NCBI GenBank assembly: GCA_030704615.1
Contig: CM060732.1
Coordinates: 11,656,001 to 11,720,000, forward strand
Reading direction: 5' to 3'
Length of the DNA stretch: 64,000 bases
From: Takakia lepidozioides
Taxonomy: Eukaryota > Plantae > Bryophyta
Below the pieces are notes generated by a model that searched no databases, had not been told where the DNA came from, and saw nothing but the letters and a program-made list of their open reading frames with translations. Numbering within the stretch: the first letter of the stretch is position 1; each line of letters begins with the position of its first letter. Both the position numbers and the translations under genes were made by a program. Below, one piece after another: positions 7,816 to 58,700 of the stretch.

Positions 7816-20985
<13,170 letters not shown>

Positions 20986-24351: not shown

Positions 24352-24463
24352 ATCCCAGAGCTTTGAGATGTGGTATGTCTTGTAATTGTAATTGAGCCAT
24401 GCTGGATGGTAAGGTTGAATCACTCACAGATGATGCCATCAAATTGGTGGTAGGGTAGCTCCT
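24352..24463 (+). repeat. Diverged duplicate of the 5'UTR/N-terminal coding segment of the PPR-DYW gene (25229-25368)
   Basis: Shared blocks ATCCCAGAGCTTTGAGAT, GGATGG.AA.GTTGAATCACTCACAGA, CATCAAATTGG and TAGCTCCT occur in the same order in both copies. Confidence 0.8.
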
Positions 24464-24978: not shown

Positions 24979-25280
24979 TTATAGTAGCAAAAGCCATTGG
25001 AATCTTTATTTTCTACATCAGAACGGGTTGTAACTCACGCATACGTTGTATTTGATTATAATTGTCGGGTTTTTCCACAATTCGTGGCATAGGTATACAC
25101 ATGTCTCTACATGTATCCCGTGAAAGTACCGATTCAGCTCGTCTCTGGGTGCCTAGGTATCCACCCGGAGTCTATTTGGAGTGAACATAAGTTGGCTGTG
25201 TTTTTTGTATTTTAAGGTCTTTCGAAGTATCCCAGAGCTTTGAGATATGCTATTTCAGTTTTCAGTTTTTAAGGTTTGTA

Positions 25281-33032: not shown

Positions 33033-34659
33033 TGCTGAGTCTCAATGATGCTTACAGTCTGGTGATGGCTGGCCCCAGTGTAGGAGCTAAGGTGGGCAAC
33101 GTCTTAGCAAGAATTGGACAAGTCTGAGAGGGCATTGTGCTGAATTCCATGCTGAGGAAAGAGAGCTGAGGCAGGGCACAACCAAAGGGAGGAGATAGTA
33201 CAGACCGTAAAAGGGCCCAAGTGCAGGCTCATCTGGGCCTTGGAAAAGAAGAACTGAAGTTCTGATTTTCCGAGTTCCCTTCCTCTTACTAGGAACAGGA
33301 AGCAAACAGGTTGCAAGTGTATCTAAATTGATGTCCCACATGGGACTGAAAAGTCCAAGAAGGACATGAGACCGAGAGAGGGGGATGACGACTGACTGTT
33401 TGATCGCAAAGGTGAGGGCAAAAAGTCTAAATTTTGCCTCGTCTGCAAGACGATATATTCCAATGCTAGCGCTGATCAGGATGTCAAAGCTCCCAGAATA
33501 CTATGGCCGAGAGACGGGGGGAGAGAGTGGGAGATCCATAGACATGGCTGTGATGGTGTGCGTGCATGATAACGAGAAGAATAGCAAATCAAGAAAGTGG
33601 GGACGAGGGTGTAAATTCAGGGCAACTTGGCTGGGGCTTCGGCACCTAATTCCCTCCCTCAAATCCAGAAAAACGAAGAACCCAGAAGACTAAGGAGGGA
33701 CAGAGGGACGTCCGTGCACCTCTGTGTGTTTATGTGTGTCTTCTGTTTGGGAGAGACAGATTACAGCACCGGCCAAAGGGAAGGCGGCGAAGCAAGAAGA
33801 AGAAGAAGCCTGTCAACAATCTTCTCTCCCATTCCTACCCTCGTGACCAGACCGTTAGTCTTGGCCTACAATCTCTTCTACGCTCCTACCTTCGCTGTAC
33901 TCTACAAGAATACCTATCGTACCAATATGTAGGCATATCACGACGGATGACGACTCCGATTACGGATGAAGACGAGAAAGCTAAGTATCATCCTGACAAT
34001 AGCCAATCCTAGAAAGAAGTGCCTACCCTTGCCCTGTCCAACACCTGTAGACAAATGTTTTGTTGGCACTTGCCTAAGCATTCTTAATGCTTGGATGACT
34101 TATTGCTGGATGAAATACATACTAGTATAATAATTAATAACATATTATTACTTAATGTAATAATAATAGACTCACAGTTCCTGGATTACGTCTCCGCGTA
34201 AAGCAGTGTTTAATTGTGTATTGACAAATATAAATGGATGAAAGATGAATGGGAAAAAAAGGTTAATTTGTGTGGGAAGCAAGCCCAAATTATAGCCAAT
34301 CACCCCAAAAAAGGGCAGCGACCCCTCTTTGTAGTTGGGTTGGCTATGGTAATCATCCTACATAAGGTCTTGTCTGTGCCCTAATCATGGGGGGTGAATA
34401 TATAATAATACCATGAATGATGTGGATGGATGTGCATACACATGTTTGGATGATGAGAATTATTAATTAATTAATAGGTGGATTATATTTTTTTTCAAAA
34501 AAGTAAAAAATGGATGACGCCTCCCCAAGGAAGCATAAATTATGGTGTCTCTTGACCCCAAAGGACTACTGCCCATCGATGGATTGGACACACGACCACT
34601 TCGGAGCTGGTATGTGCCCATTATCATTGGGCTATAACTCAGTTGTCATTTTCATATTC

Positions 34660-36710
34660 ATAACAAATAGGCAGTTTAGGGCCCTATTCTTGGAAACTGG
34701 ATCATAGTTTAGAAGAAGGTCTGTATCAGTGAGCTGTCTGGGACCTCCCAACATCTATAAAATGACTTAACATAAGGCCAGATCTTGGCTGGAGCTTGAC
34801 ATGCATGAAGACACTGTTCGAGGGATTCCAAGATTGCAGTGGAGCAGCAAACACACAACAGAGCTCCCTAGAACTGTAAACATTCTCCAACTTTTAGTAC
34901 TCTATTGACCACCTGCCATAGAAAAGCTGCTATCTTTGACGGACGGGGTTTGATCCACACTGAGCCCCAACTAGTTTTCCAGTTCTTATCGCAGAAGTTG
35001 TACAACCCCACTTTGATTCCCATTTTTTGTACATAGGCTGGATGACTGACAGAGCCTTGTAGCCCTTTTTGGTTGTATATGCAAAGAAGGGCTCTGGGGA
35101 GTTGTTGAATTTCCACAACCATTCGGAGGGGTCAATTTCCATTTCTGCAAAGCGGCTTGCCCATAATCCATACAAAGGAGTTGGTTGTCAACCATGCCCT
35201 AGTAGTAATAGTGAGGGGAGGTTGGGATTCATTCTCTTATCTGTGGCTGTCCAACAGCAGACACGGACTGGAGTGAGAGCCATAATATGTATTGTCAAAG
35301 GTTCTGGAGAGGTAAGTGTGAGTCTTAGGGAGGTGGTGTTGATGGCGAATGTATAAACAGAAATGTCGTTTATGGATGTGTCTTCTACGAATACAATAGT
35401 AAGCTGGTTATGAAGCATGACGAGGGCCCAGGAGTTTGGGGCTAGCTCCGGAGGGCCTGTGGAAAGGGTAGCCAACCAATACAATGGTATGGACTGAACT
35501 AGTTGTTGATGGCCTTTAGTGGCCCTTGCAACGGCCACAGCCTGAGCAACCGATTCTAGAGATCTGAGACCGTTTCCTGACCATATATTATAAATCTGTC
35601 TGATGCCAAGGCAGTCCAATTTGGACCACCTTTTTGCCTGGTTTTTTTGAGAAGGGGTCAGAGGGGTGGAGTTTAGAAACAAGTGTTGTCTTTTGACTTC
35701 ATAGTAGGTACTTGGCTGGGCTTTTACGAGCAGTTTCCTCAGCCTCCCCCAGGCTAACTAGATGTTAGACCATAGGGCAGATCCCACTGTCTTGAGGTTA
35801 AATCCTTGAGTGAGCCAACGTAGGGAAGGGCTCCACTGGGTAGTCTTGAGGGGGGAGGAGTTTGTAATGTGGCGATAGACCAAGAATTTCCACCATCCCC
35901 CCTCCAGCCCTAGAAACCTAGGTATCCACTTGCCAAAGAAGGGCTACAATCTGCGTTTCTGGATCGAGAATCCCCAACCCATCTTTTTTTTTTGGTAAAC
36001 AAATTTGAGCCCAGGCTACAAGCGGTCGTTTGTTTTGGGATGAGGTCTCAGCTCCCCAGACAAAGTTCCTAAGAAGGCGCTTAATTTCCTGAATCCGTTT
36101 GGAGTTTGGGCGCCAAGAGGAAGCATAATACCATAATCCAGCAGAATGAATCTGATTAGCTACAAAGGCTCTGCCGATAATTGAGAGATGTTCTGACCCC
36201 CAGTAAGTCAATTTCCTCTTCAAGTTGGCCACTGTGGCAACAAATATCTGTTGGTCTGACAGGCTGATTCCGTAGGTATAGCCCAACAGTGTGGTGGTCT
36301 CCCCAGGTTGGAGCTACTTGAGTTCTTGATCCATTCCCCATGTGGGCGGGGATCCCATTGTGGATGTTGAGAGGTCACCTACCAGTAACCCTGAAGTTTT
36401 GTTCCAGTTATTTTGAATCCAGATGCTGCACAAAATTTGTTCAAGGTAAACCCTGCCTGGTCCAAGTTTTCCGGTGTGGCTTGCAACATCAAAAATGTAT
36501 CATCAACGAACATTGAATCAACCAAGAAATTGTACCGCCTGGTAATGTAGTTAGTGACCCGGAGGCCCTTTATAAATTGATTTTGTTGCAGCATATAGCC
36601 CAGTGTATTTGCTACCGCCAGAAAAAAGAAAGGTGAGAGGGGACACCCTTGTCTCACAAAGCGTTGTAGAGGGAACGAAGCAGATAAGCGACCATTGACT
36701 GAGACTCTGC
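34660..36710 (-). mobile_element. 5'-truncated L1/Tx1-like LINE ORF2 relic (RT domain to zf-RVT)
   Basis: VRQGCPLSP, FVDDT, FCAASG, LSIIGR..VAN, LVAWAQICLPKKKDGLGI and KIAAFLWQVVNRVLKVGE, with frameshifts and stops. Confidence 0.85.
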
Positions 36711-39800: not shown

Positions 39801-40396
39801 GCAAAGTACACTGTGCTACTCTAGACATTAACTATGGACTAGCATAGCTGTAGATGAGAGCTTTAATCGTCGATGGATCTGCAAGGGCAGTTGCAGGGTT
39901 GAGTGGACCAAAAACGGCAAATCCTACTCCATGAAAGTCCATGACCAAAAAACAAGTTGAGGATACTATCCCAAAATATTTTTTTGGTGATAGATAATGG
40001 TATACTGAACATATTTAGTAAAGAGTACTACCCCAAATATTAAAGATATAATTCTTTAAACATTTTAATATATTATTTAAAGAAATTATGAAAAACTAAA
40101 AATTAGAGTTTACAAAAAAAATTCAATATGACACCTAGCCATTGAAGATTATAGGTTTTTATACTTCTAGAAAAAAAATGACACCCAAAATCCAAAAAAC
40201 AAGATGAGCCTTTTCAAAAAACGCCTATTTTTTTGACATATATTAGTCCATATGAGTCAAATGACATATGATTTTGCCACTTCAAATCCATACCTATGAT
40301 GTGGACCAAAATGGCCACCTTATGTCCAAATTTCAATGGAATTCACCAATGGCACATATGAGAACTTGAGTCCATTGTAATTCCATTCATTGCGGT

Positions 40397-40584
40397 TGTC
40401 GTGCGCATACATATCGCTACACAACTACATCGCTGTCCAAAACCACACAACACATGTGCACACCACACACTAGTATACCACCAGTCTACCACAAGTCCAG
40501 CCACTAGTCCAACCACTAGGCTACAACTAGTCAGTCACTAGGCTGCCACTACGCTGCCCACTATGGCAGTCACTAGTCCACACA
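40397..40584 (-). repeat. LTR segment A, terminal copy (U3-like part)
   Basis: Direct repeat of 40915-41102 with 2 mismatches, rich in CACTAG motifs. Confidence 0.95.
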
Positions 40585-40585
40585 A

Positions 40586-41102
40586 TGATAAAGAAGAAGA
40601 ATACAAGCACAAGCTCATGCGAGCTCACAAAGCTGAAGCATAAACTCATGCATATATAACCTCATCACTCAAATACAAGTCAAGCCAAGTGCACCCCACG
40701 CCATGGGGAATCCACACTACGGCGCCATAGCTAGGCGCGGTGAGGCTCAACTCGAGAAAGATGAGCCTCCCGCGCTTGCCGTGAAGATAACCACTCCAGG
40801 GCCTAAATCTGCCTTGACCCCTGGATTGACACTTGGGCCAATCCCAAATGTCAATATGTAAAAGATAGCTATTTCCTAGCTAGTTTCACACTAGTGGTAA
40901 AATAACTTGACAGTTGTCGTGCGCATACATATCGCTACACAACTACATCGCTGTCCAAAACCACACAACACATGTGCACACCACACACTAGTATACCACT
41001 AGTCTACCACTAGTCCAGCCACTAGTCCAACCACTAGGCTACAACTAGTCAGTCACTAGGCTGCCACTACGCTGCCCACTATGGCAGTCACTAGTCCACA
41101 CA
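40586..41102 (-). repeat. Complete canonical 3' LTR (517 bp; A-AC-B on the element strand; TG...CA)
   Basis: On the minus strand it begins TGTGTGG just after the PPT and ends TTTATCA. B part = 40586-40912, A part = 40915-41102, joined by GACA-AC-TGTC. Confidence 0.85.
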
Positions 41103-41104
41103 AT

Positions 41105-41113
41105 CGCCCCCCT
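41105..41113 (-). promoter_or_regulatory. Polypurine tract (plus-strand primer)
   Basis: Minus strand reads AGGGGGGCG-AT-TG directly upstream of the 3' LTR. Confidence 0.7.
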
Positions 41114-41362
41114 AGCTGGTGCTTAGGTCCCTCTAAGTCCAGGTAGCCACAAGATGTGATAGTGACCATAGCCTCACTAAGTCCTCCACCACTATCCCTA
41201 CTACACTCAAACTCGATAGATCAAGAGGCCGAGTGCAAGAGTTGCCCCATCGTTAGTCGCCGTCTTGCAACCTGTGAACTTGAGCTTGGGATCTCATGTA
41301 TTGACTCCTATGAGCTTGGCATCCCATGTCTTGTTAGCTGCCTCCAGTCATGTCCACTGTCA

Positions 41363-41503
41363 CTATCCCAAGCAGTGTGGACACAACCAATCTCCGTCAG
41401 GAACCTTCTCAAGAGGTGGTGTCAAGCATCCCATATGTCAACCCCTTGAGCACCGATCACACACCAGCATGGTGGCTGCCCCTTTGGCAGACCCACAGAG
41501 CAT
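41363..41503 (-). other. PHD finger (C4HC3) at the integrase C-terminus, interrupted by a TGG>TGA stop
   Basis: CMLC...LVCDRCSRG*HMGCLTPPLEKVPDGDWLCPHC, in frame through the stop at 41438-41440 to TAG at 41363. Confidence 0.9.
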
Positions 41504-44400
41504 GCACCTCAAACCTGCAGGTACCACTGCCAAGTTTGGGTCAACTCTGCCATCGACATTGGGAAGGTGACATGGCGCACAATTACGCACATGGTCTTTC
41601 CAAGTCATGCCATCCCGACCCTCTAAGATCAGGACCCCTGAGGGCAACACCTCTCGAACCCTCAAAATAACACGCCCTGCAGTAACATCCAGAGTCGTAG
41701 GAGCAGTCTGTTGCAAATAAACATAGTCACCAGGGCTAAACCTCCGAACCCCAGGACGATATCCTCCACCACGTATAGTGGCATACCTCAACGTATCACG
41801 GTGCTGTGCAATGGCAAGGTTCTCAAAAGCCATGGGCATGACTTTCTTGAACAACTCTGCACGCTGATCACATGCACGTACCCACACGTCCGGATCGTCA
41901 AGGTTAAGGACTTGAGCAGTGTCCCTACGAATGGCTGCAGGCAAATCCGGCTCTCGGCCAAAGAGAAGGAAATATGGTGAGAAGGAGGCAAGTGATGCTT
42001 GTTTGCTGAACATGTAGCCCATGGCTAACCAAGGAACCTGAAGATCCCAATCTCCTAGGTGTCCCTTCTGCAAGCCATACTTGCGCAAACCCCTCTTCAC
42101 CGTCTGAACAACTCTCTCTGCTAAGCCATCGGCCTCAGGATGATCCTGAGAAGTGGTGCGGTGGTCTATCAAGGCTTTATCACACAAAGCCTGAAACTCC
42201 CCCAAGAACTCTCTCCCTTGGTCCGTGAGTACCTCAGCTGGAGCACCAAATCGGCTAAGCACACGATCCAAGAATGCATACGCAGCCCCCTCACTAGCCT
42301 TGTCAGGCAATGGAACCAACTCAATCCACTTGGAGAAGTGCTCCACCATCACCAACACATATCTGTGGTGGCGCATAGTCAGTGGCAACGGTCCTGCGAA
42401 GTCAAGACTCCATCTGTAGCCCAATCCCATGATAGGTAAAGGATGCAACTGTGGTGTAGGGGCGTTAAACGAAGCACGCACCCTGTCACACACCATGCAC
42501 CTAGCCACAAACTGTTGCACCTCTGTATGCATACCACGCCACCAATACTGCCCCTGCAGTAAACTGTGAGTGCGTCGCACTCCAAAATGCCCCAACTCCT
42601 CATGGGCATGCCGCACTAACCGTGCACGCTGTGTGGGGTGAGGCACAATCCTCACCCGACCACCCTCCCACACTCGAAGTAGGTGTATCCCCTCCCACTT
42701 GAACCTCTTGGCTCGTTGTAGGATCCGATCCCTCTCCCTGGCAGTCACAATGGCTGCCGTGTCTCCCGTGCGGAGGTAGTCCAACACAGCCAAATCCTCA
42801 TGTATATCTCTGGCACCACCTAGCTCATCACTAGCCTCAGGGTCCTCAGACACTCCGTCTACAGTCATCCCTGTTGTAGGTCCAATCTGACCTCCCGATG
42901 CCAAGATACACAAAAATGCAGATGCGTGCCATCCCGGCACCATCTCCTCGTCCGTCTCACCATGCCACCGAGCTCCAGTGTCATCCTGCTGGCTCATGCA
43001 TGGATTGCGACTCAATCCATCCGCATCCCGATTGACCAAACCCGGTCGATGCACAACCTGAAAGTCATACTCCTGGAGTATAAGTGCCCACCGTGCAAGC
43101 TTCCCCGTAAGCTTGTCTGACTCCATCAACCACTTGAGTGGCTGGTGATCCGTGACAAGGGTGAAAAGATTGCCGTATAGATAGCACCTGAAGTGTGCCA
43201 CGGCCCACACTGCAGCTAAGCACTCTCCCTCATATGAGCTGTACTTAGCCTCTGCAGCGTTGTTCGAGCGGCTAGCGTAAGCCACTACGAACTCTCTTCC
43301 CTCATCATCCACCTGTGTGAGCACCGCTCCAAGCCCCAGCATGCTCCAATCCGTATGCAGCTGAAAGGGACGCCCCCTGATAGGTCGTCTCAAGATAGGC
43401 GCCGAGGTCAACCTCGCCTTGAGCTCTTGAAAAGCTCGTTCCTGCTCATCTTCCCACTGCCACTCCTGGTCCACCTTGGTCAGCTTGGTTAGAGCCTTTG
43501 CAATGGTACTAAATCCCTTGACAAACCGTCTATAATAGTTTGCCAACCCCATGAAAGCTCGAACTCGGCTCACATCCGTGGGGCGTGGAATTTGTGCAAT
43601 GGCCTCTACCTTAGTCTGCTGTACCCCCAATCCTCCAGGATATATCATGTGACCCAGATACTCAATCTGGTTGTGGAAAAACTTGCACTTCCCCGGATGC
43701 AACTTCAATCCGTGCGCTCTCAAGCGCTCCAATACCACCTGAAGGTGTCTCTCATGCTCCTCCATCGTAACACTAAAGATGATGATGTCATCTATGTAGC
43801 ACCGAGCAAAGTCCACCCCTGCTAGAATCCTATCCATGACTCTCTGAAACTCTGCAGGAGCATTCTTAAGCCCAAATGGTAAGAACCGCCACTGATATAG
43901 GCAATCCTTGCCGTGCTCATTGATCCCCCAGAATGCCGTCTTCTGCTTGTCCGCCTCCTTGATTGGCAACTGGTGATATCCGGATCGTAAATCCAAAGTG
44001 CTAAAGGCCTTAGCATGCCCGATGGCATCAAAGATCTCCTCTGGTGTTGGCATGGCATACTTATCGGACTTGGTCTGACGATTTACAGGCCGGTAATCAC
44101 CGCACATACGTCTCTCCGTCCAATTGCCATAGACATCCTTCTTGGCTGGCATCACTGTGGCTGAAGCATACTCTCCACCAGAGAGCTCCACCAAACCTGC
44201 CTCCCAGAGATCTTGAGTCCTCATCTGAATCAAAGACCTCTCCATGTCATTGTATCTATAGGGTCTCCGAAAGATTGGCGTGTCAGTGGCCAACTCAATA
44301 CGGATCTCTTGACCCTTCAGTGCTCCCAAGTCCTTCAAACTGAAGGCAAAGCAATTCCTGTAAGCCCTCAGGAACCGCCGTATACGTCGTCTCTCTCCTC
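41438..44400 (-). CDS. Gypsy pol: reverse transcriptase, RNase H, DDE integrase and start of PHD finger (uninterrupted 966-aa ORF)
   Basis: RT: RMCGDYR, LDLRSGYHQ, PFGLKNAP, YIDDI. RNase H: LHTDWS, ECLAAVW, TDHQPL. Integrase: HHCC (HAHEELGH...CMVC), SLDFAGP, TDQGREF, GLAERVV. Confidence 0.95.
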
Positions 44401-44789
44401 CGGTGACAATGGGTCCAATGTCAGGCTCCCAATTGTCCTCCGTAACTACAACCTTAAGTCCAGTGGGCTTAGAGGTAGAGGACGCGTCCCGTGGTTGCTA
44501 TGCTGCAACCTCTTGAGCAGTACTCCCTACCTGCTCAGTCAATGACAAGGCATCATCCTGCCCCATCATCTCATCCTTGAGGACCTCCTCAACTCGAGAA
44601 GAATCCCCAACCTCATCCATCACAGCCGCCTTGGCTGCCAACTCCCTCTGAACCTCGAGCACCTCCCACGTGTGCCATGGATGCATGCACCCCGTGGTCC
44701 TCATATGCTCGCCCCCACTCACTGCCTGTACCGTCTCGGTAGGCAGAGAGACCATTGAGGGAAGTGTATTCCGCACTCTGCGTTGCTCA

Positions 44790-45750
44790 GCTAGAGCCAA
44801 GCTGATAATCCAGGTCAAGCAATTGAGATCCATTGCTTGCCCCACACACTTGACGACGTGATGCCTCAGAAAGAGACGACACCGCCGTGGTACCAGTGGT
44901 AAAACCCATTGCCCGCTCACGCTCGTCAGCATTAGGCTCCACTAACTGCTGCAACTGAGCATCCCACAGGAGGCCAGGTCCACTATCCGGAAAGCATGCG
45001 ATCCTGGGAAGCTGAGCAGTGTAGGTAATGCTGCTCGTGGTTGACCCACCTTGTTGACCACTGCCAAAGGCGAACGGTCATCGTGTCTCACACGTTGAGA
45101 CTGCCTCCCTGTGTCCAGAATGTTATCCACTGTGAGATGTGCTGGCCGCTGCACCCCATCAAATGCACGCTTGAGCAGTGCGGGTGGCATCATGTTAGTC
45201 CACCATAGCCGTGGACGATGAGCCCGTGACCCCACTGTAGCTGCATCTAGCAACACTGCTGACCCAAGCCACGACCGGACTTGATGCACACTGGCCATCA
45301 CCCTGGCCCGAGAATCGCCCATCAGTGGCACATTCTCCAAGATGTATGCTGGAGATACAGCTTGATGAAGCTGCAAGTGGCGCAAAACCCGCACCATCTC
45401 CCAAAACAGACCCGACCTCGAGTCTCGCAATCCATTGCCATGCCCGGCTGATGAATGCCCTTGGCAGGGCCAACCTGCCACTACCAGATCAATGGAGCCA
45501 ACCCGCTCCAAATCCTGCGCCCCCAGCAACGAAATGTCTGCTGGCAAGGCCTGCTGATATCCACGAATTGCAGACACCGACAACAACTCAGGGTACCGCT
45601 GCACCAACTGAGCAACATGGCGAAGTGAAACGCGTCGTGCTGTCTCATCCCTCTCCACATACAGGTAACGCCGAACTCGTACACCTGCCTGTAACACAGC
45701 AGCCAATCGTGCTGATCCCGCCAAACAAGTCCAGAAGACAAATGCCTTCA
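44790..45750 (-). pseudogene. Retrotransposon-encoded C5 cytosine DNA methyltransferase domain (DNMT3-like), frameshifted in this copy
   Basis: Motif I LLDLFGGIS (~45710-45746), II YLYVE, III DI, IV DLVVAGWPCQ (PCQ at 45461-45469), VI YILENV (ENV at 45329-45337), VIII AHRPRLWWTN, IX ERERAMGF (~44900-44925), X GQAMDLNCL (~44820-44845). Confidence 0.9.
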
Positions 45751-46099
45751 TCTGGAGACTGCCACAACAATAGGTGTGGTGTCCAATGGAGACAATTGAG
45801 GTGGTCCTGGTGCAATCCCCACACTCTCCTCCTCTCCTGACGGTACAAAAGCCTCCACCCAGGCTTGTTGCACCCGTCGATCAGCATCCCGCTGCAAATC
45901 CTTGCTCGTGCCCCACAATGGAGTCTGAGCAACCATGGTAGGCAACTCCGCCATACCATACATGTCATCCTGCTCTCCAGGAGGTGGTACATCCTCTGAA
46001 TGAGCATTGCCCTCAAGCAACTCTCTAGGCCAACTCACTGCCGCTGTGAATGCTGCTAGTGTCGGCATCTTGCCTCGCTGGGCAACCGCAACTCCTCCT

Positions 46100-46470
46100 A
46101 TGAACGTCACAGGGAGCTGCACACGCCGGCCCTCCCCTGACTGCCATGCAGGCCTATAGGAAGCTGACTCCTCCCAAAAATCCAGGGTGAAGCCCATGGG
46201 GTACAACACTGCCCCACCAACCAGGACATCATATGAGACTGCGTCTGTCACAATGGCCTTGGCTCGCATCACTGAGCCATCTGTAGGGTGATCCGGCCGT
46301 AGTCTGATAGCCAACTCATGCCATGTCATGCCCCAAGCCTGCTCCGATCCTCCCAGAGACGTCTGTATCTGGAAAGGACAAGGCTCCATATCCGCCTCTG
46401 TGAGCCCAAGCCTGCAATAGCAGCTCTGCCCAGCATCATGGCTGAGCTCCCGAGTCCAACAAGACTCGCA
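46100..46470 (-). pseudogene. Aspartic protease domain of the Gypsy element (frameshifted)
   Basis: RVLLDSGAQP catalytic motif at ~46440-46465, and YDVLVGG..L..MGF downstream in another frame. Confidence 0.8.
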
Positions 46471-46899
46471 GTGGCCGGTACCTCTTGCCTGCCGGTCCAC
46501 TCAAACAGAAAATGCCATCCTGATTGTCTAACATGACAACTCCAGGTGTCACCATGGCGCGCTCAATGGCTGGCCTAACTGGCAGCTCCATCAATCTGGC
46601 AGCTGCAGCTTGCCATGGCGCCGCCGTGGCAGTCTTGACCCTCAAATCCGAGGATCCCTCCGGCACTACACCTCCCACTATCTCCGCAGAAGATGAAGTA
46701 ACCTCCCCACTCTCACAGAGTGTAGCTGCCAGCCTGAACACCTCAGCTGGAATTATCCCCGGCGTCGCAATCATGGTAGCCGAGAACAATGGAGCCTGGC
46801 ACACAGATGTGGCCGCTCCTAAACAGCACACTAGCTGCCGTAGCCTTGGCAACACTAGGTAGTGGTGCTGCCGTGTAGCTCTCCCCAATGGCATAGTAA

Positions 46900-48650
46900 C
46901 CTCCGCCTCGGTAATAGTCGGGCGAGAACTAGGTGCCATGGATGGCGTCGACACTGTCTCCGCCAATGTGAATGACTGAGGAAGCCTAGCCTGACGGCTT
47001 GCCTCCCCACGCTGTGGATCCAACTCCACCTCTGCACCTTGTGGCTCAGGAACTCGTGCTGCTCCTCGAGTCACGGCTGCAGCAGACTCCACCTGCACTA
47101 GTGGTAGTGCTGCTCCACACATGAATCCCATGCCTCCCATATCTCCTCCCTCAGGAGCAGGAGGTGGACCATCCGCATTAGAGCCGGTACCACCTGAGCT
47201 GTAGTCCATGGCAGCGAGCCTCTGCTCTAGCTGCTGAAGCCGGTTGGCCATGCCTTGGTCAACACCCGGACCTCCGCGTCCTTGGCCACGTTGAGCTTGC
47301 CCTTGGCCTGCACCTCGTGGCTGGCCACCTCGTCCTCTCTGGGCTGCTCCACCTCGCCCCCGGCCACCATTGTTCCCTTGGAACTGGCCTGGCGCAACTC
47401 AGGATGCAAACTATAACACTGGGCCTCTCCATGCCCGTGCTTGCCACAATGCCCACACTGCAACTGTGCAGCTGTGCATGTGCCGACCCTTTGCCTCCCT
47501 CTGGGCAATCCTTCTTGACATGGGGTCCTCCACATGTCCAGCACACCACATCCGCCCGTTGTTGGCCAGCAATGAAGGGAGAGACCCCTGCATCTGAGGT
47601 CCTCTCTGCCCTTCCCTGAGCTTCACCTGAGCCCCCTTGTTGCCTTGAGCACGTTGAGGTAGTGGTTGGCTAGAGCACCACTACCCCGTGGTGTCTCCTT
47701 AGCAAATCCCACCATGACCACTCGTTCCTTCCACCATGTTGAGCTCTATCCGCTCTGCCAGCAAAAACACATTTGCTAAGGTGGGTTGGGGCCGCTGTAG
47801 GAGAGTTGCATCCCCGCACCCTTCTCCTCAGCTCCTTGTCCAATATCCCATACCAGAATTGGACTGCCTGAGCTTCCGTAACCCTTGGGTTACATTTATC
47901 AAGCGGCCTCATGCAGTGAAAGCTACCTCAAGCTCTCGGTCGGCTTCCGTTGGAACTCTTGCAAGCTCCGCAACTTCTCTGTCCTCACCCCTTGGTAGTT
48001 CCCTCTCAACTCTTCGAAGAACTCCACAACAGGGTTGAAGGCAGGCACGGGTGCTAGTGCTGGTGCGGTAGTGGCTTGGGTGGACGTCGTAGCTACTGTA
48101 CCACCAGTCCCACTGCTACTTGCTGAAGCTGCCGGTGCAGCGGCAGGTGTAGCCACTGCCCTCGTGGCTCTAGTGCCCCTAGTGATGGAGACATAGTCGG
48201 GTGACCAGTACATCCTCCACTCCTCGATCTCAACCTCATGCCCCCGCCTGAACTCATGGTAATCATCCATAGGCGGCCCCTCAAGGTGCTGAAACAGCCC
48301 TTCCATGCCATGAACGGCGTAAATAGTTGTGGATTGCGCATTTGCTGCTCATCAACTCTTGGATAAAATCATCCAACTCAATGGTGCCCACCGCCCCAGA
48401 GTACCTTCGTGGCCCCTTGGTAGCTCCATACATCTCCTCCATTGTGTCCCACAACAATGGCAAAAAAACACTTGCACCGCCGGTATGAGCCCTCCTGATT
48501 CACAATCCGAATCAGAACCTTCCGTGGAAGACACAGGAGGTGAAGGTGGCCTAAACCGCACACCTCGTCTCGTGTACCCACTAGTATCGCTAGTGCTCGA
48601 ACCGGCACTGTCCCCAGCAACTAGTGGCACCTCCGTGTTGACACTCAACC
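46900..48650 (-). pseudogene. gag region with two zinc knuckles (frameshifted)
   Basis: YSG...ELDDF, LQEFQRKPTESLR and VQFWYGILDKELR capsid-like blocks. Knuckles CWTCGGPHVKKDC and CGHCGKHGHGEAQC (~47410-47545). Confidence 0.75.
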
Positions 48651-48914
48651 GGTCATGAACATGTCCCTAACCCCCTCTCCACAAGGTAACCGGGTAGAGA
48701 ACCTGTTGCGGCTTATGGTTTGGAATACTAAGTTCCTAACATAGCCTACACCTGAACTTGCATGACCATGGGAATATCATGAAGATACTCCTCAACCGCC
48801 CTCCACGAGCTTCAAATTCGGCCTTCCAGACCACATGCCAGTCCTCCACCAGTGCCTCCCGAGTCAGCACAGGCCATCCACAGGTCAACACGGGCCACCA
48901 CAGACCAGCACAGG

Positions 48915-49360
48915 CCCACACAGCTCACTGGTCACAGCGGGGGCACGTCACAGCCCCTCACAGCACGGGGGGGGGGGGGGCCCGTCACAGCCCCAAAGGC
49001 CAACAGTCACAGCCTCAAAGGCCTCAGGCACGGCCTGTCACAGCCCTCACAGCCCGGGCCCACAGGTCATCACCCCCTTGTCACAGCCCCTCACTCACTC
49101 ACACGGGGGCAACGCCGGGCCCCAAAGGCCTCAGGCACGGCCTGTCACAGCCCCTCACAGCCACAGCCCCAAAGGCCCACGGCCTGTCACAGCCCCTCAC
49201 ATCACAGCCCATTGTCACAGCCGCCCGTCACAGCCCCACCTTGTCACAGGCCCCACAGCCCCAAAGGCCTCAGGCACCAGCCGCCTCAACAGCCACAATT
49301 GGGGCAGGCCCCACAACACAGCCTGTCTTTTTACAGCCCTGGGGTCACAGGCCCCACACA
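48915..49360. repeat. GC-rich tandem repeat array (TGTCACAGCCCC-type units) in the element's 5' leader
   Basis: More than 15 degenerate (G)TCACAGCC(CC) units, plus the longer repeated block CCCCAAAGGCCTCAGGCAC. Confidence 0.85.
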
Positions 49361-50875
49361 TGGCCGCTCTGGCAGTTTAGCCATTTCTCCAAGGGGTTTA
49401 GCCACGCCAAGCTAGGGTTTGTGTCTCTTGGACTCTAGGCTTCTTTCCACCGAGCTATGGTGGCTGTGAGGAAATCAGCAAGGTATCCTTGCTCTTTCGG
49501 CTCCCACACACCACCATAGTAGCCCTAAGCCATGAGGTGGTTGCCACAAACCAAGCCTTCTTTCTCACTTAGCCTCCCCAAACACGCCACTAAACTCAAT
49601 GGCAAACAACCAAGCCCTGCTGGTTCCCAGCCCTTGTGAGCACTCATTCAAGCACTCCCCTCATTGGCCATAGCATCTGTCTTAGAGCCTATTCCAGCCC
49701 TCTACACCTGTTGCTTCAAGTTGCGCTCCCTTCAAGCTTGAAGTTGAAACCCCAACTCACATAGGCCCTACAAGTGCTGTTCTTTCACTCCAAGTGGAAA
49801 CCAGCCCTAGACCTTCCGTTCTAGCTCTCTAAGGCTTGAAAACAAGAGCCTCAATGGGCTGAAGGCATGCTCCACACATGCCCCACTCTCACCATAAGAG
49901 AATCAGCTCCTTTGCTTCATTTCTTGCACCCACAAACCTGAAATACAAGCTTCAGCAGGCTGAAAGCATGCTCTACATGCCCTACAGGGAAACCAGCCCC
50001 TTCCTTCCTTTCTTGCACTCCCACACCTAAAAGTGCAAGCCTTCACCAGGCTGATAGCATGCTCCACACATACATTGCCCTCACATAAGGGAAGTCAGCC
50101 CTTCCCTCTTCCTTGCTTGCCCTCCAAGCTTGAAGATGGAAGCTTCAATGAGCTGAATACATGCTCCACACATGCAACCTCTTCACACAAGAGATATCAG
50201 CCCCCTATCTTGGCTCCTTGGCTCCTTGATGCTCTCTAAGACAAGACTAAGCACTCCATAGCCTTTGCCAAGCTCCTGAAACCCTAAGGCTTACATTTCC
50301 AGCCACAAGACACTTCTCTTGTGGTGCAAGAGCTCTTCTTCCAAGCTCTGAAACCCTAGGTGCACATTCCATGGCCTTGCCGCACCTCTTAGCTCCTGTT
50401 CCAGCCCTGCTCTTGCCATGACAAGAGCCCTCAATGCTGAAGCTCGAGATTGAAACCCAATCTCACCATACTCCACAAGTGCACTGATTTGCCCCAAGCC
50501 AAATCAGCCCTTTCGCTTGGTCTTGCAATCCTTCACACAATGAAAGCTCGCATTCCCAAGTCCAGTTCTCAGCTTTGCCACCAAAGCCACTATAACCTGC
50601 TCTTGACTGGTCCTCTTCCCAATCGTGCTTGCTCATGCATGTACACAATCTGAAACCATCAAGGTGCTCTGGAATTACCTGCAGCATGGTGCTTTCATCT
50701 CTGAAGCTGAAGATCGAATGCCAAGGTCTACCACCTCGTAACCCACATCGCCTCCGCTTCTAACAACCAAGAGCTCCACGGTGCTCCTTGCATAACAACT
50801 TGGTTTCTCTCATTCTCAAGCAAAAACCACAAGTGCTACAACTAACTCGTATCTGGCACTCACAGATACGAGCTG

Positions 50876-50888
50876 ATCTTTCTCGAGT
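50876..50888 (-). promoter_or_regulatory. Self-priming primer-binding site
   Basis: There is no TGG-type tRNA PBS after the LTR's CA. Instead 50876-50888 is a perfect 13-bp inverted repeat of 51052-51064 inside the 5' LTR segment. Confidence 0.75.
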
Positions 50889-51214
50889 GATAAAGAAGAA
50901 GAATACAAGCACAAGCTCATGCGAGCTCACAAAGCTGAAGCATAAACTCATGCATATATAACCTCATCACTCAAATACAAGTCAAGCCAAGTGCACCCCA
51001 CGCCATGGGGAATCCACACTACGGCGCCATAGCTAGGCGCGGTGAGGCTCAACTCGAGAAAGATGAGCCTCCCGCGCTTGCCGTGAAGATAACCACTCCA
51101 GGGCCTAAATCTGCCTTGACCCCTGGATTGACACTTGGGCCAATCCCAAATGTCAATATGTAAAAGCTAGCTATTTCCTAGCTAGTTTCACACTAGTGGT
51201 AAAATAACTTGACA
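50888..51214 (-). repeat. LTR segment B, 5' terminal copy (327 bp)
   Basis: Direct repeat of 40586-40912 with 1 mismatch. It ends in CA immediately before the PBS. Confidence 0.95.
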
Positions 51215-52739
51215 CGGTAACAGTCCACAATGACGGTGTTCAAAAGTCCATAGCGGAGTCATTTCTTATCGGATTCATGATTGGAGAGTTGCTATGGGTG
51301 CGTATTGAAACTAGGAATCCAATGACATATATAGTTGCTGGTTTTAATGAGTTAATTCAATTTCAATTGATGACACCATCAATTGCAGTCATCTAAAACT
51401 GTACTGGTAACGTCCATTTTGGTCCAGTCAACCCTGCATTCACACGCAAACCTATATTGGCTTCCATTTTTTATTTTAATGCTTGAGTTAGTTATAGTAA
51501 TATTGATTGATCTCCATCTGTTGCAATAATTAACCATACACACACTAATACTCTATCATTAATTCAGAGCAAACGTAGATAAGTGGAAGGGATGATGAAG
51601 GTGAACAATAACCGAGGTTGCACGAAGAGGGTTGCATTAATTATGTTTTGTTTTGATATCTGTGGTTTCCACTAGGAAAACCTTCACCTAAAACAAATAC
51701 TGAAATTTGCCTACCTTATTGGAATTCCTAAAGGTTGATACAATGTTTTATATGACTGAGAGAGAGAAAGGGGGGGAGGGTTGTGTGTAGGTTTACTTTA
51801 AGTTTTGCTTCTCTTGCTAAAAAAGAAAGTGCAATATTTTATCGTTGGCTATAGGCGCTGAAATCCCACAACATAGTATCCCACTATATTGCATAAAATA
51901 AATGTGGTGGTGATCCTATGATACAATCTGTACAATAAAGACAACAGAAAAGAAGATATGAAAAAAACACATTATCTCGCTAGAGCCAGAGATTGTTTCA
52001 TCCCCTCAATTGTGTAGTCCACAATCTGAGACTATTTCAAAACCAGCCAAGTATTCAGTCGGACATCGAACATAATGATATCATTGGCACCATCTAGATA
52101 CATAAAAACTCTAGATACTCCTCCATCGACCTTGTTATCAAATGTGCCTAACGTAAGATTTAGTTAGTTTCGAATTAATGTTGGAAAAACAAAACGAGAC
52201 TTGGGAGGATAGTCACGTTTGAAATGGAGTAAATTCCGACTTTAGTTGTTTCACACTGCCAACAACATTTCGCGAACAATACCCAACACATAAAAAATGC
52301 AATGTTTTTCTCTTTCTTTCTTAAACTGGTATGGTCTTAGATGAGCTTCTACTGGATGTTTTAATCTTCCTTCATCCCTTCCATCTCCTTAAATCCATGA
52401 CCGTGCACCACAAATATAGCATATCTAGCCCAGGGTGGATTTTTAAATATGCTAAATATTAGGATCGATCCCATATGAAGTCATCTTACACATAGCATTT
52501 TTCCTATTAGGTAGGTGTCTTTGGTGGGGCCCACAGTCAAATACCCACCCTATGGACATTTTTATATAATTCTAGCGACGACCGAAGGTGGGGAGAGCTA
52601 GTTTAGCGTAGAGCAGGAATAGGGTGCCGTAGTGCCACATCGTGGGTACAGACAGATGTAATCCAGCAAAATGTTCATGGTCATATTTATGGAAGGGTAC
52701 AGAGGTTAGAATGCTGGCTAGCTGCGAAGTGAAGAAGTA

Positions 52740-55700
52740 CAAACGTGATGTGGTCGGGCTTCACCCCTTCCCCCATCATTTGCTCATAGGTCTCCAAAGC
52801 CTCCATCCCGCGCCCTTGCTGTGCATACCCTACAATCATCGCACTCCACGGTCACACCAAATCTCATTCAGCCATACTGTCAAACACTCCCTCCGCATCC
52901 TCGATGCACCCACATTTTGCATAGTGTTGAGAACTCCCTTCATATCCTTGGCATGAATCCACTTTGGATAATGTGTGTGTTCACCTGCTTTCCAGTTTCC
53001 AGAGCTTTCATCTTGATGCACTTAAGCAAGAGACAGACAAACGTATCTGAATCTGCTGAAATGCCTCCCATATTTGGTATACATGTCCACGAGGGTAGAG
53101 TTCAGAATGACATGTGGTACAATCCCAGCTTTCGTGATGCAACCATGCACCTCTTCGCCCTTTTCCAGGGCTGCCAGGCTTGCACATGCACAGACGTGAT
53201 GTGGTTGGGCACCACATCTTGTTCAGCCCTAGTGTCGAAAACTCCCTTCGCATCCTCCGCGTGAATCCACTTTGGATAATGTGAGTGTGCACCTGCTTTG
53301 CAGCTTCCAGACCTTTCATCTTGATACACTTAAGCAAGAGACAGACAGACGTATCTGAATCTGCTGAAATGCCTCCCACATTTGGCATACATGTCCACGA
53401 GGGAAGAGTTCAGAATGACATCTGGTACAATTCCAGATTTGACAATGTCACCATGGACCTCTTTGCCCTTTTCCAGGGCTGCCAGACTTGCACAAGCATT
53501 GCAATCACACACAAACATGATGTGGTTAGGCTTCACCCCTTCCCCCATCATTTGATCATAGGTCTCCAAAGCCACCAACCCACATCCTTGTTGTGCATAC
53601 CCTGCAAGCATTGCATGCCACAACACCACATCTTGTTCAGCCATAGTGTCGAAAACTCCCTTCGCATCCTTGCACTTTGGATAATGTGAATGTGCACCTG
53701 CTTTCCAGCTTCCAGACCTTTTCATCTTGATGCACTTAAGCAAGAGACAGACAAACGTATCTGAATATGATGAAATGCCTCCCACATTTGGCAGACATGT
53801 CCACTAGGGTATTGTTCAGAATGACATCTGGTACAATTCCAGCTTTCGCGATGCAACCATGGACCTCTTTGCCCTTTTCCAGGGCTGCCAGGCTTGCACA
53901 TGCATTGCAATCACACACAAACGTGATGTGTTTGGGCTTCACCCCTTCCCCCATCATTTGATCATAGGTCTCCAAAGCCACCATCCCACGTCCCTGCTGT
54001 GCATACCCTGCAAGCATCGCGTGCCACGACACAACATCTTGTTCAGCCACAGTGTTGAAAACTCCCTTTGCATCTGGTACAATTGCAGCTTTCGCGATGC
54101 AACCATGGACCTCTTTGCCCTTTTCCAGGGCTGCCAGGCTTGCACACGCATTGCAAATGCATACAAACGTGATGTGGTTGGCCTTCACCCCTTCCCACAT
54201 CATTTGATCATAGGTCTCCGAGGCCACCATCCCACGTCCCTGCTGTGCATACCCTGCAAGCATCGCGTGCCACGACACCACATCTTGTTCAGCCATAGCG
54301 TTGAAAACTCCCTTCGCATCCTCAATGCACCCACATTTGGCATACATGTCCACCAGAGCAGTGTTCAGAATGCTTTGACGATGTCACCATGGACCTCTTT
54401 TCCCCTTTTCCAGAGCTCCCAGGCTTGCACACGGTTGGGCTTCACCCCTTCGTGTAGCATTTGCTCATAGGTCTCCAAAGCATTCCTACCACACCCATGC
54501 TTGGTAAATCCTGCCGACATTATATTCCACGTGATCAAAGATCGATCATTGAGGCATTCGGTTGAACACTTGGTGAGCATCCATGATGCTCCCGCACTTA
54601 ACACATACATGTTGACAAGGGTGTTAAGGAGAAAAACACTTGGCGTGAATCCACTTTGGATAATGTGAGTGTGCACCTGCTTTCCAGCTTCCAGACCTTT
54701 CATCTTGATACACTTAAGCAAGAGACAATGCGTGTGCAAGCCTGGCAGCCCTGGAAAAGGGCAAAGAGGTCCATGGTGACATCGTCAAAGCTGGAATTGT
54801 ACACTGCCCTGGTGGACATGTATGCCAAATGTGGGTGCATTGAGGATGCGAAGGGCGTGTTCGACAATATGGCTGAACGAAATGTGGTGTCGTGGAACGC
54901 GATGATCGCAGGATATGCCCAGCATGGTTGTCATAGGGAGGTCCTGCAACTATTTGAAGGAATAAAGAAGAATGGCTTGAAGCCAGACAGTCTCACCTTT
55001 ATATGTGTTCTCTCTGCATGTAGCCACACTGGCCTACTGAATGAAGGAAATCAAGATCATGGTGTCACTCCAACAGTAAAGCACTTTGGCTGTATGGTGG
55101 ACCGTCTTGGACAACTGGATGAGGCAGTGGATCTGATTAATAAGATGCCAATCAATCTAGATGTTGTGGTGTGGAAGGCCTTGCTTGGTGCTTGCAGAAT
55201 CCATGGCAATGTGGAGATGGCTGAACGTGCGGCGACATCTATCCTCAAATGGGATGAACAGGATGCCGCGACTTATGTGTTGCTATGCTGGCAGGTGGGA
55301 TGATACTGCAAAGGTGAGAAGAATGCTGAAGGTCAGAGGGGTTAGAAAGGAGCCAAGTCGCTGCTGCATTGAGGTTGGCAACAGGGTGCACACCTTCGCT
55401 GTAGATGACAAGTTGCACACATGTTTTGTATTGCATGATGTAGGGGAGGAGGAAAAGGAATTTTGTCTTTGCCACCACAGTGAGAAGCTGGCCATTGGTT
55501 TTGGGCTGATCAGCACGACCCCTAGGACGCCTCTCCGTCTCATCAAGAATCTTCGAGTGTGTGGTGACTGCCACACCTTCACCAAATTCATCTCAAAGAT
55601 TGTTGGTCGAGCAATTGTTGTATGCTACGCTAACCGCTTTCACCACTTTGAAGATGGGATTTGTTCTTGTGGTGATTACTGGTGAAAGGATGTTTTCTTG

Positions 55701-58700
55701 GCAAGATGCAAGTGTCTTGCTTCATTCATTGATCTATGTAGCTACTCAGACCATCCACCATTTCCTGAGAGTCTTGACCATCATGTACTGCCAGAGAGGG
55801 CTGGAGGATCAGATGAGGGTTTGACAGATTCAACATCATGGATGCTCACCAAGTGTTCAACAGAATGCCTCAACATCTTTGATCACGTGGAATATAATGT
55901 TGGCAGGATTTACCAAGCATGTGTGTGGTAGGAATGCTTTGGAGACCTATGAGCAAATGTTGCGCGAAGGGTGAAGCCCAGCCACATCACATTTGTTTGT
56001 GTTGCAATGCGTGTGCAAGCCTGGGAGCTCTGGAAAAGGGGAAAGAGGTCCATGGTGACATCGTCAAAGTTGGAATTGTACCAGATGTCATTCTGAACAC
56101 TACCTTGGTGGACATGTATGCCAAATGTGGGTGCATTAAGGATGCAAAGGGAGTTTTCAAGGATTTACCAAGCATGGGTGTGGTAGGAATGCTTTGGAGA
56201 CCTATGAGCAAATGCTGCAAAGGGGTGAAGCCCAACCACATCACATTTGTTTGTGTTTGCAATGCGTGTGCAATCCTGGGAGCTCTGGAAAAGCGGAGAG
56301 AGGTCCATGGTGACATCACCAAAGCTGGAATTGTACCAGATGTGATTCTGAACAATACCCTCGTGGACATGTATGCCAAATGTGGGAGCATTGAGGATGT
56401 GGAGGGAGTGTTCAACACTATGGCTGAACAAGATGTGGCACGGGTTGGAGTGGACACGTCGTCACGTGTAGCACAGGCTGTTTCTGTGGAGCGACGGACT
56501 GAATAGCACATCAAGTGTTTGACAAGATGGCTGAACGAGATGTGGTCTCACGGAGCACAATAATTGCAGGATATGCACAGCACGGGAGTGGCAGGGAGGT
56601 GTTTGAGATATATGAGCAAATGATTCAAAAAGGTGTGACACCCAACAAGGTCACATTTATTTGCTTCTCACCGCATGTGCCAACTTGGTGGCCCTGCAAA
56701 AAGGCAAAGAGGTTTATGCTGACATTATCAAAGCTGGAATTGCACGAGATATCATTCTGGAGACAACCCTCCTTGACATGTATGCCAGATGCAGGATATT
56801 GAAGGATGTCCGTGAAGTGTTTGACAAAATGGACAAAATGGACATCACGTTTGTGTGATTGCAATGCTTGTGCAAGTCTAGCAGCCCTGGAAAAGGGCAA
56901 AGAGGTGATCAAATGATGGGGGAAGGGGTGAAGTCCAACCACATCACGTTTGTGTGTGCATTTGCAATGCATGTGCAAGCCTGGCAGCACTGGAAAAGGG
57001 CAAAGAGGTGCATGGTGACATCGCGAAAGCTGGAATTGTACCAGATGTCATTTGAACAATACCCTCGTGGACATGTATGCCAATTATGTGGGAGGCATTT
57101 CAGCAGATTCAGATACATTTGTCTGTCTCTTGCTTAAGTGCATCAAGATAAAAGGTCTGGAAGCTGGAAAGCAGGTGCACACTCACATTATCCAAAGTGG
57201 ATTCATGCCAAGGATGTGAAGGGAGTTTTCAACACTATGGCTGAACAAGATGTGGTGTCGTGGCACGCTATGCTTGCAGGGTATGCACAGCAGGGACGTG
57301 GGTTGGTGGCTTTGGAAACCTATGATCAATTGATGGGGGAAGGGGTGAAGCCCAACCACATCACACTGAGGAGGCCAGTGAGGGCTTATTGAAGGCTGAG
57401 CTTTCTTTATTCCGACGCTTTCCCGTTGACAATGAGGAGAAACGTTTGTTTGTGATTCCAATGCTTGTGCAAGCCTGACAGCCCTGGAAAAGGGTAAAGA
57501 GGTCCTTGGTGACATTGTCAAAGCTGGGATTGTACCAGATGTCATTCTGAACTCTGCCCTGGTGGACGCTATGCTTGCAGGGTATGCACAACAGGGACAT
57601 GGGTTGGTGGCTTTGGAAACCTATGATCAATTGATGGGGGAAGGGGTGAAGCCCAACCACATCATGTTTGTTTGTGATTCCAATGCTTGTACAAGCCTGA
57701 CAGCCCTGGAAAAGGGTAAAGAGGTCCATGGTGACATTGTCAAAGCTGGGATTGTACCAGATGTCATTCTGAACTCTGCCCTGGTGGACATGTATGCCAA
57801 ATGTGGGTGCATTGAGGATGCAAAGCAAGGAACTTATGTGTACTCTGCGAAGGGGGGAAGCCCAACCACATCACCCTAGTTTGTGTTTGCAATGCGTGTG
57901 CAAGCTTGGGAGCCCTCAAAAAGGGGAAAGAGGTCCATGGTGACATCGTCAAAGCTGGAATTGTATCCGATGTTATTCTGAACAATGCCCTCGTGGACAT
58001 GTATGCCAAATGTGGGAGCATTGAGGATGCGAAGGCAGTGTTCAACTCTATCGTTGAATGAAATGTGGTGTCGTGGAATGCGATGCTTGTAGGGTATGCA
58101 CAGCAGGTGCGTGGGATGGAGGCTTTGGAGACCTATGAGCAAATGATGGGGGAAGGGGTGAAGCCCGACCATATCACGTCTGTGTGTTTGCAAGCCTGAC
58201 AGCCCTGGAAATGAGCGAAGGGGTGCATGGTTGCATCGTAAAAGCAGGAGTTGGTGAGAAGAATGATGAAGGTCAGAGGGGTTAGAAAGGAGCCAGGTCG
58301 CTGCTGCATTGAGATTTGCAACAGGGTGCGCACACCTTCGCTGTAGATGACAGGTTGCATCCCAGAATTAAGGAAATCCATGCTGAGCTGAGAAGATTGT
58401 CTGGGCAGATGAAAGGAGGCGGGGTGACACGTGCTTTGTATTTCATGATGTGGGGAAGGAGGAAAATGAATTTTCTCTTTGCCACCACAGTGAGAAGTTG
58501 GCCATTGGTTTTGGGCTGATCAGGTTTGTGTGCGTTTGCAGTGCGTGTGCAAGCCTGGCAGCCCTGGAGAAGGGCAAAGAGGTGCATGGTTGCATTGCCA
58601 AAGCTGTAATTGTACCAGATGTGATTCTGAACAATACCCTCATGGACATGGATGCCAAATGTGGGAGCATTGAGGATGCGGAGGGAGTGTTCATGCTTGC

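Follow-up and report, generated by a model that had tools for sequence, protein, structure and literature searches.

Introduction

Since 2018 it has been a puzzle why some retrotransposons carry an enzyme class that silences them; the cases described so far are from dinoflagellates and from an alga with little genetics. A locus of the bryophyte Takakia lepidozioides raises the question for a land plant. The window analyzed here is the whole stretch of 64,000 nucleotides (contig CM060732.1 of assembly GCA_030704615.1, positions 11,656,001 to 11,720,000), and all coordinates are positions within it. An earlier note, based on the letters alone, had described a DNMT3-like C5 DNA methyltransferase (DNMT) between the protease and the reverse transcriptase (RT) of a Gypsy retrotransposon, related to elements of the charophyte Klebsormidium, and had proposed that the enzyme may be packaged to methylate cDNA or new insertions.

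The window contains an intact PPR-E-DYW editing factor of 886 codons (25191-27848, plus strand) and an ABCG transporter gene (28784-33041, minus strand), whose best single-domain matches are from Ceratodon (76%), Sphagnum (73%), Calypogeia (73%) and Selaginella (72%). Both genes fit a seedless land plant at the bryophyte grade, and the ABCG tree, weakly supported, gives no finer placement. Exons resembling isoleucyl-tRNA synthetase (11088-14216, minus) and frames resembling LINE-type tails (35191-35757 and 23947-24423, both minus; no Pfam match for the former) were recognized by eye. Scrambled and frameshifted PPR-DYW fragments lie on both strands to the right of the element (52700-59650).

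Results and Discussion

A DNMT3-type methyltransferase domain

Translation of the minus strand at 44790-45745 gave a C5 cytosine methyltransferase domain of the DNMT3 type. Its motifs follow the canonical, non-permuted order that had been claimed for it: LDLFGG (motif I, 45734-45717), GWPCQ (motif IV, Cys codon at 45466-45464), ENV (motif VI, starting at 45337), HRPRLWW (motif VIII, arginines at 45217 and 45211), ERAMGF (motif IX, 44918-44901) and GQAMDL (motif X, starting at 44842). The PF00145 profile matched the main frame of the domain with E=3.1e-13 (50.3 bits, cut-off 22).

The proposed closeness to DNMT3 is supported at two levels. In a PDB sequence search the domain matched DNMT3A and DNMT3B best (E 5.5e-6), followed by HhaI. 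For P0002, an unbroken homolog from Calypogeia (73% identical), the AlphaFold model had pLDDT values mostly above 85 across the domain and matched DNMT3A with a target TM of 0.78-0.83 (E 4e-17). A DRM-type identity was rejected, as had been argued earlier, because DRM is circularly permuted and the window domain is not; DRM2 was also a weak match in the PDB search (E 0.08-0.3). Host DNMT3 proteins (PpDNMT3b, MpDNMT3b) share the catalytic fold and motif order, but the window domain is intronless and lies inside a transposon ORF. A search of IMG/VR returned 6 distant phage-type methylases only, and an atlas lookup for the homolog P0004 returned generic DNA_methylase clusters only.

The copy in the window is damaged. 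Three frame changes fall within the domain (about 45710, 44986 and 44845), in line with the roughly three frameshifts first estimated, and one more lies just upstream (about 45770). In a contig comparison other copies show indels where the frame of this copy breaks, so the lesions are either its own or assembly errors. All ~9-13 frame-changing indels of the element lie in Gag-protease-DNMT (44500-48466, 4 kb) and none in the Pol frame (41441-44497, 3 kb), a spread with p about 0.006-0.0006 if random, yet the repeats are 99.4% alike. Two of the indel pairs compensate each other. Uneven assembly error or real decay limited to ORF1 may account for this restriction.

A Ty3/Gypsy element with split repeats

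The domain belongs to a Ty3/Gypsy element of 10.8 kb that spans 40397-51214 on the minus strand, the strand of all features below. In its own sense the element reads A, leader, Gag, protease, DNMT, stop, RT, RNase H, integrase, PHD finger, purine tract, B, A, B. It begins with the first copy of repeat A (50888-51214, 327 bp, TG...CA), which is 99.7% identical to the second copy (40586-40912). The first copy of repeat B (40915-41104, ending in GACA) is 99% identical to the second (40397-40586), which forms the 3' end. The element ends are accordingly TGTC...GACA, with the 4-bp target-site duplication ACCG on either side (5' copy at 51215-51218, 3' copy at 40393-40396). The A copies differ at 1 of 327 positions and the B copies at 2 of 192, which indicates a young insertion.

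Behind the first A lies a long leader with short tandem and local repeats (48700-50875). Gag (47400-48650) was located by tblastn with Marchantia ORF1 proteins; it has several frame breaks and two Cys/His knuckles (about 47543-47505 and 47457-47416), and Pfam zf-CCHC matches weakly (E=0.065). The aspartic protease (46100-46500) carries the motif LLDSGAQP (46462-46439) and a frame break at about 46435. It has no Pfam match in the window copy, and its homolog P0024, 44% identical at the protease, matches Asp_protease_2. Downstream of the DNMT an ORF of 1019 open codons (44497-41441) encodes RT and RNase H (43067-44113; RVT_1 E=4e-33, RT_RNaseH E=1e-35) and an integrase with an H2C2 zinc domain and an rve core (42140-42637; Pfam E=2e-16 and 2e-13). 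A C-terminal PHD finger (41372-41506), interrupted here by an in-frame stop (41440-41438), was recognized by sequence and is unbroken in the homologs L028 and L017 (PF00628, E=9e-11 and 4e-11); Pfam gave no chromodomain match behind the integrase. The purine-rich tract at 41105-41117, directly before the first B, is likely the plus-strand primer.

The order protease, RT, RNase H, DDE integrase (Pfam) is that of Ty3/Gypsy. A tyrosine-recombinase element (DIRS/Ngaro) was considered and rejected given the DDE integrase and the 4-bp duplications; Pfam found no tyrosine recombinase in the frames scanned and an rve and H2C2 integrase instead. That the element is a Ty3/Gypsy retrotransposon copy with a DNMT3-type domain is close to certain. 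With a CpG ratio of 0.47, against 0.43-0.46 in its flanks, it shows no special depletion signature. A sigma-70 promoter scan found none, a model irrelevant to plant DNA.

A conserved stop codon closes ORF1 behind the methyltransferase

The DNMT does lie between protease and RT, as first described, but it does not share an open frame with RT. A TAG at 44500-44498 is in frame with both and is followed by CAA CCA (together 44492-44500). In a survey of 71 rows, 21 were off the place or too low-scoring, including the more distant L046; all 50 covered rows have a stop at the same place (31 TAG, 19 TAA), and CAA follows directly in 49 of them. These rows include repeats of one insertion, yet they span three sub-lineages (window, L002 and peat type). 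Natural ORF1 proteins of several lineages (1248-1427 aa) end without RT, 76-133 aa past motif X wherever motif X could be located. A lesion of the window copy was therefore rejected as the origin of a stop that is conserved among relatives, and the DNMT domain ends ORF1 (Gag-protease-DNMT).

According to PMC3441728, the sequence CARYYA signals readthrough in retrotransposons. It is complete only in the window element, L002 and L023, and most peat-type copies match it at five of six positions. In most peat-type copies the sequence is CAACCC with an ATG behind it, which makes reinitiation possible in them. Given its conservation behind the DNMT, the stop likely acts as a readthrough signal, with Pol made by readthrough and the DNMT made at Gag levels; the stop thus predicts how much enzyme gets made. 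The Klebsormidium gene model and P0029, in contrast to the ORF1 of the window, continue past the DNMT into RT, and the stop may be a trait of the land-plant branch.

Abundance and distribution of the family

Approximately 80,000 contigs from each of two sequencing runs of one sample map to 6.9 kb of the element. In run X3 the depth of the DNMT bins (0.69-1.32 million) was comparable to that over RT and integrase (0.95-1.33 million), contig depth being no copy number. The same resemblance was seen in X1, X3 and X5 (three runs, two studies); a fourth run, X8, contributed 3 contigs, none on the DNMT. The element belongs to a high-copy Ty3/Gypsy family whose other copies carry the DNMT as well, and the domain is not a one-off capture.

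Named homologs come from Marchantia polymorpha, M. paleacea, Riccia sorocarpa, Calypogeia fissa, Sphagnum troendelagicum, S. tenellum and Klebsormidium nitens. No vascular-plant name occurs among the named matches in a set of 38 and in the best 120 of 217, which is no proof of absence. Among metagenome loci, 80 of 90 found were kept. As far as contigs reach and copies are undamaged, the 70 loci of land-plant type have the domain order of the window; in the 10 others the DNMT sits immediately ahead of the integrase or between it and RNase H.

A quick IQ-TREE analysis of the DNMT with SH-aLRT support was run on 62 chosen rows of transposon type only; the homolog searches had returned no host DNMT3, DRM, MET1 or CMT sequence. 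The tree placed the window together with the named bryophyte proteins in a clade of 21 rows (support 100), and Klebsormidium in a separate clade. Sphagnum-type copies grouped with Marchantia (95) and Calypogeia fell outside, in conflict with the species tree, which suggests old parallel lineages or transfer. In FastTree analyses, midpoint-rooted and without DNMT-free Gypsy outgroups, Klebsormidium joined the window group, of the order protease-DNMT-RT, by RT (0.999, 16 rows) and by integrase (0.82, 14 rows). Persistence of the lineage in land plants, which the earlier note had proposed, thus agrees with the homologs in Marchantia, Calypogeia and Sphagnum and with the position of the window in a bryophyte clade. 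The proposed relation to the Klebsormidium elements is likewise consistent with a shared domain order, repeat layout and RT grouping.

In a much larger set of Gypsy elements the same type of DNMT sits between RNase H and integrase, and many of these elements also have a PHD finger. The set comprises 531 clusters at E<=1e-30, and a retroelement domain was found in 98 of 141 new top representatives (P0196-P0336). Its loci L065, L067, L069 and L071-L077 have 51-62% G+C and are perhaps from green algae, which is a guess. Decayed copies or other Gypsy fragments adjoin some family members (L050:1015-4324, L050:17124-18428, L026:14562-15791), which suggests clustered insertion.

The closest described element is KnitGypsy-Dnmt3 of Klebsormidium nitens (de Mendoza et al. 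2018, PMC5890265). It too has a non-permuted, intronless Dnmt3-like domain inside the Gypsy coding region, the order protease-DNMT-RT-RNaseH-integrase (KFL_009030040), Gypsy domains combined with DIRS-like A-coding-B-A-B repeats (PMC5890265, Fig. 4c legend), and purifying selection on the DNMT. The window element differs in its land-plant host, its very high copy number, its separate DNMT clade and an identity of 45% in both DNMT and RT. Self-priming, a junction palindrome and a stop were not found in the accessible parts of PMC5890265, and 'PHD' is absent from its main text. SymbioDIRS-Dnmt3, from the same paper, also combines a Dnmt3 domain with A-coding-B-A-B repeats, but it has a tyrosine recombinase and an unrelated RT class in place of the DDE integrase and 4-bp duplications of the window element.

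No report of such elements in land plants was found in the literature, although genome papers, figures or Repbase/Dfam may mention the family. The name 'KnitGypsy' was found in one paper only, PMC5890265; the accessible portion of its text does not mention Marchantia, and that of its supplement names Physcomitrella and Selaginella and not Marchantia or Sphagnum. The corresponding wording in the available text of PMC12344493 is 'streptophytes and dinoflagellates'. This kind of DNMT-bearing Gypsy element, known from an alga, is here extended to land plants, including the model Marchantia.

Selection on the methyltransferase

Comparison of the window DNMT with 63 related loci gave pN 0.218, pS 0.717 and a dN/dS of about 0.11, a rough value because dS is near saturation. 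The corresponding values were 0.17 for the protease and 0.08 for the integrase. Amino-acid identity in the DNMT remains ~70% at near-saturated synonymous sites. These figures roughly indicate purifying selection on the DNMT between lineages, where neutral evolution in the family copies had been named as a sign of a one-off captured host fragment.

Within the peat-type family pN/pS was higher for the DNMT (0.54-0.65) than for RT (0.36-0.42), but deamination after insertion and one or two divergent rows confound this comparison. From deamination alone, values of 0.73 for the DNMT and 0.60 for RT are expected, so it explains only part of the gap. At most, the within-family ratio leans slightly against selection.

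Predicted self-priming and a proposed integration route

The layout A-internal-B-A-B departs from that of two identical colinear LTRs. It recurs in full in L028, L050 and L066 (second family). A nested or tandem insertion was rejected as its cause because other copies, and also those of a second family, show the same layout and ends. Exact 4-bp duplications flank 7 of the 9 elements with both ends; of the other two, one matches at 3 of 4 positions and one has a damaged 5' end. In each of four runs compared, contigs pass into unrelated flanks at the B end, at 40913-40915 (in X3, 34 contigs, agreement 0.37), and one contig shows an unrelated flank at the A start; loose sequence behind the A end is the primer region. 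Contig depth in X6 was about 2:2:1 for A, B and internal sequence. The B/A junction is an inverted repeat, GACA-nn-TGTC (40909-40918), a predicted integrase cut site to which insertion ends of the family map, and forms a perfect 10-bp palindrome in L006, L015, L028 and most copies of the window family.

Directly behind the first A, a predicted primer-binding site (50876-50888), whose start is not the TGG of a tRNA-primed site, is complementary to a 13-nt site inside A (51052-51064), the predicted self-primer and likely transcript 5' end (13/13 pairs, fold z=-6.9). The peat type has a different sequence, which in 11 of 16 loci still pairs (11-13/13 pairs) at the corresponding position, 172-173 bases from the A end; in the other 5 the best pairing site is elsewhere. 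The pairing geometry is that of Tf1 self-priming. Tf1/Sushi and Tcn1 elements (PMC6317226) also have a primer site complementary to their own 5' repeat, and Tcn1, for which self-priming has been predicted, occurs in mosses and club-mosses (PMC6317226). Unlike these, the window element has a PHD finger, split repeats and a DNMT, and no chromodomain match. Gypsy-7a_cRei of Chlamydomonas (bioRxiv 2022.06.16.496473), compared by its description, shares a PHD finger in the polyprotein and an LTR of subparts, but the domains listed there include no DNMT.

With a primer site behind the first A and a purine tract before the first B, standard reverse transcription would yield the cDNA B-A-internal-B-A. 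The A/B junction equals the expected join of the ends of such a molecule, sharing one A, in both families. Foamy-virus integrase is known to cleave palindromic junctions of 2-LTR circles (PMC1180852), and a similar cut of an end-joined form at the B/A palindrome would give the observed layout. This circle model is incomplete without an asymmetric step: it predicts mirror forms (A-B-A-internal-B, with B upstream), which were absent from all 17 distinct 5' ends, where equal site use predicts ~6 (p 0.0003-0.0006).

The missing mirror forms, and the highly uniform A/B junction, would be explained if A-internal-B-A-B were copied from RNA by an extra template switch and did not arise by end-joining and cutting. 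Such a switch has been proposed for split-repeat tyrosine-recombinase elements. As an account of the repeats only it is possible, though we regard it as doubtful, since the two priming signals already give B-A-internal-B-A by the standard route, the junction matches the join of its ends in both families, and no priming step could be drawn that copies the second B from RNA.

Eleven 3' ends have a single B, which may reflect cutting of a one-repeat form, B-B recombination or assembly collapse. Such A-internal-B forms occur in L017, L019, L021, L023, L026, L034, L049, L059, L078 and others, with exact target duplications in L034, L059 and L078; having no 3' copy of A, they would be dead ends. The runs also contain variant B repeats (window 40959-41099) that share both ends and differ in the middle, with a depth peak at the B end; these may be subfamilies or non-autonomous partners sharing a terminal signal. 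A symmetric CHG pair lies within the junction palindrome of related copies (window 40909-40918; L006, L015, L028). Purely as speculation, the choice of cut site could in principle depend on methylation of this pair. A search of the distant RT-RNaseH-DNMT-integrase loci, most of them on contigs too short to show the layout, found no split repeats. Together with a DDE integrase, split repeats point to an integration route unlike the textbook one. Programs that search for LTRs as an identical pair would likely overlook such elements, which may have gone unnoticed for that reason.

Function of the methyltransferase

The account we favor, and consider probable, is that an active DNMT is packaged and methylates the element's own cDNA before integration; we infer packaging, activity and substrate alike. 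Transcription would start inside A, and the transcript would prime itself behind A as that of Tf1 does. Ribosomes would mostly halt behind the DNMT, and occasional readthrough would add RT-RNaseH-integrase-PHD. Within the particle the protease would free the DNMT, which could then methylate cDNA cytosines, and a new insertion would arrive methylated like host transposon DNA, either hidden from surveillance or damped in its own activity. The ends of the cDNA B-A-internal-B-A would be joined at A/B, and the DDE integrase would open the inner B/A palindrome to give A-internal-B-A-B. The PHD finger may steer integration to a chromatin state.

The foremost alternative is that the DNMT is abundant but acts in the nucleus, on integrated copies or, in trans, on host chromatin, and not on particle cDNA. 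The element would thereby silence itself and spare the host, or chromatin near insertions would be remodelled. Output at Gag level, as we reconstruct it, would exceed the need of one 11-kb cDNA. The slowing of transposition was raised as an option by de Mendoza et al. 2018 (PMC5890265), and in Physcomitrium the host DNMT3 methylates CG and CHH sites de novo (PMC6453930). The architecture of the element nevertheless makes this alternative unlikely. The enzyme is fused to Gag and protease, and the PHD finger sits on Pol, beyond the stop. Such a fusion places an enzyme in the particle by default.

Catalysis itself may be questioned. The fold and motifs could be kept as a module that binds or captures DNA or RNA, for cDNA maturation or for circle-and-cut integration, and that transfers few methyl groups or none; or the enzyme could methylate RNA. 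The Klebsormidium enzyme gave no methylation in yeast, the chief finding against the account we favor, though its authors considered it inconclusive as DNMT3B failed too (PMC5890265). WEC replaces WPC at motif IV in 63 of the 141 representatives of the larger set, and a DNMT and split repeats occur together in both Klebsormidium and the window element. However, the catalytic Cys, ENV and RxR are retained across the unbroken bryophyte proteins, the closest folds are the DNA-acting DNMT3s, and DNMT2 is a weak sequence match only, so we judge a non-catalytic or RNA-directed role improbable. Only 21 of 53 distinct copies have kept motif VIII intact, as is expected of dead copies, and this count gives no support. 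In favor of activity, related DIRS-borne Dnmt3 domains methylate CG in yeast, and SymbioDIRS-Dnmt3 does so de novo (PMC5890265).

That the domain is a captured host DNMT3 fragment, hitchhiking without function, is very improbable: although the window copy is broken and the within-family DNMT pN/pS exceeds that of RT, a host gene fragment is largely refuted by the dN/dS of about 0.1 between lineages, by the amino-acid identity kept at near-saturated synonymous sites, and by a wide range that takes in two liverwort orders, Sphagnum, Klebsormidium and the 531 clusters.

Implications for bryophyte genomes

Taking the preferred reading of a packaged, cDNA-methylating enzyme further, we tentatively suggest, at appreciably lower confidence, that these elements form an old green-lineage Gypsy clade, still alive in mosses and liverworts, in which particles with Gag-level DNMT3 would methylate their own cDNA and integrate not through the cDNA ends but through integrase cutting at an internal palindrome of an end-joined intermediate, and in which thousands of copies would add to the host methylome. 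Marchantia polymorpha has unbroken Gag-protease-DNMT relatives that bear the annotation 'hypothetical protein' (Mp4g09160). Since Marchantia has mutants and methylomes as well as these unbroken relatives, the question of why a retrotransposon carries such an enzyme becomes testable there. DNMT gene counts in bryophyte genomes may be inflated by such copies.
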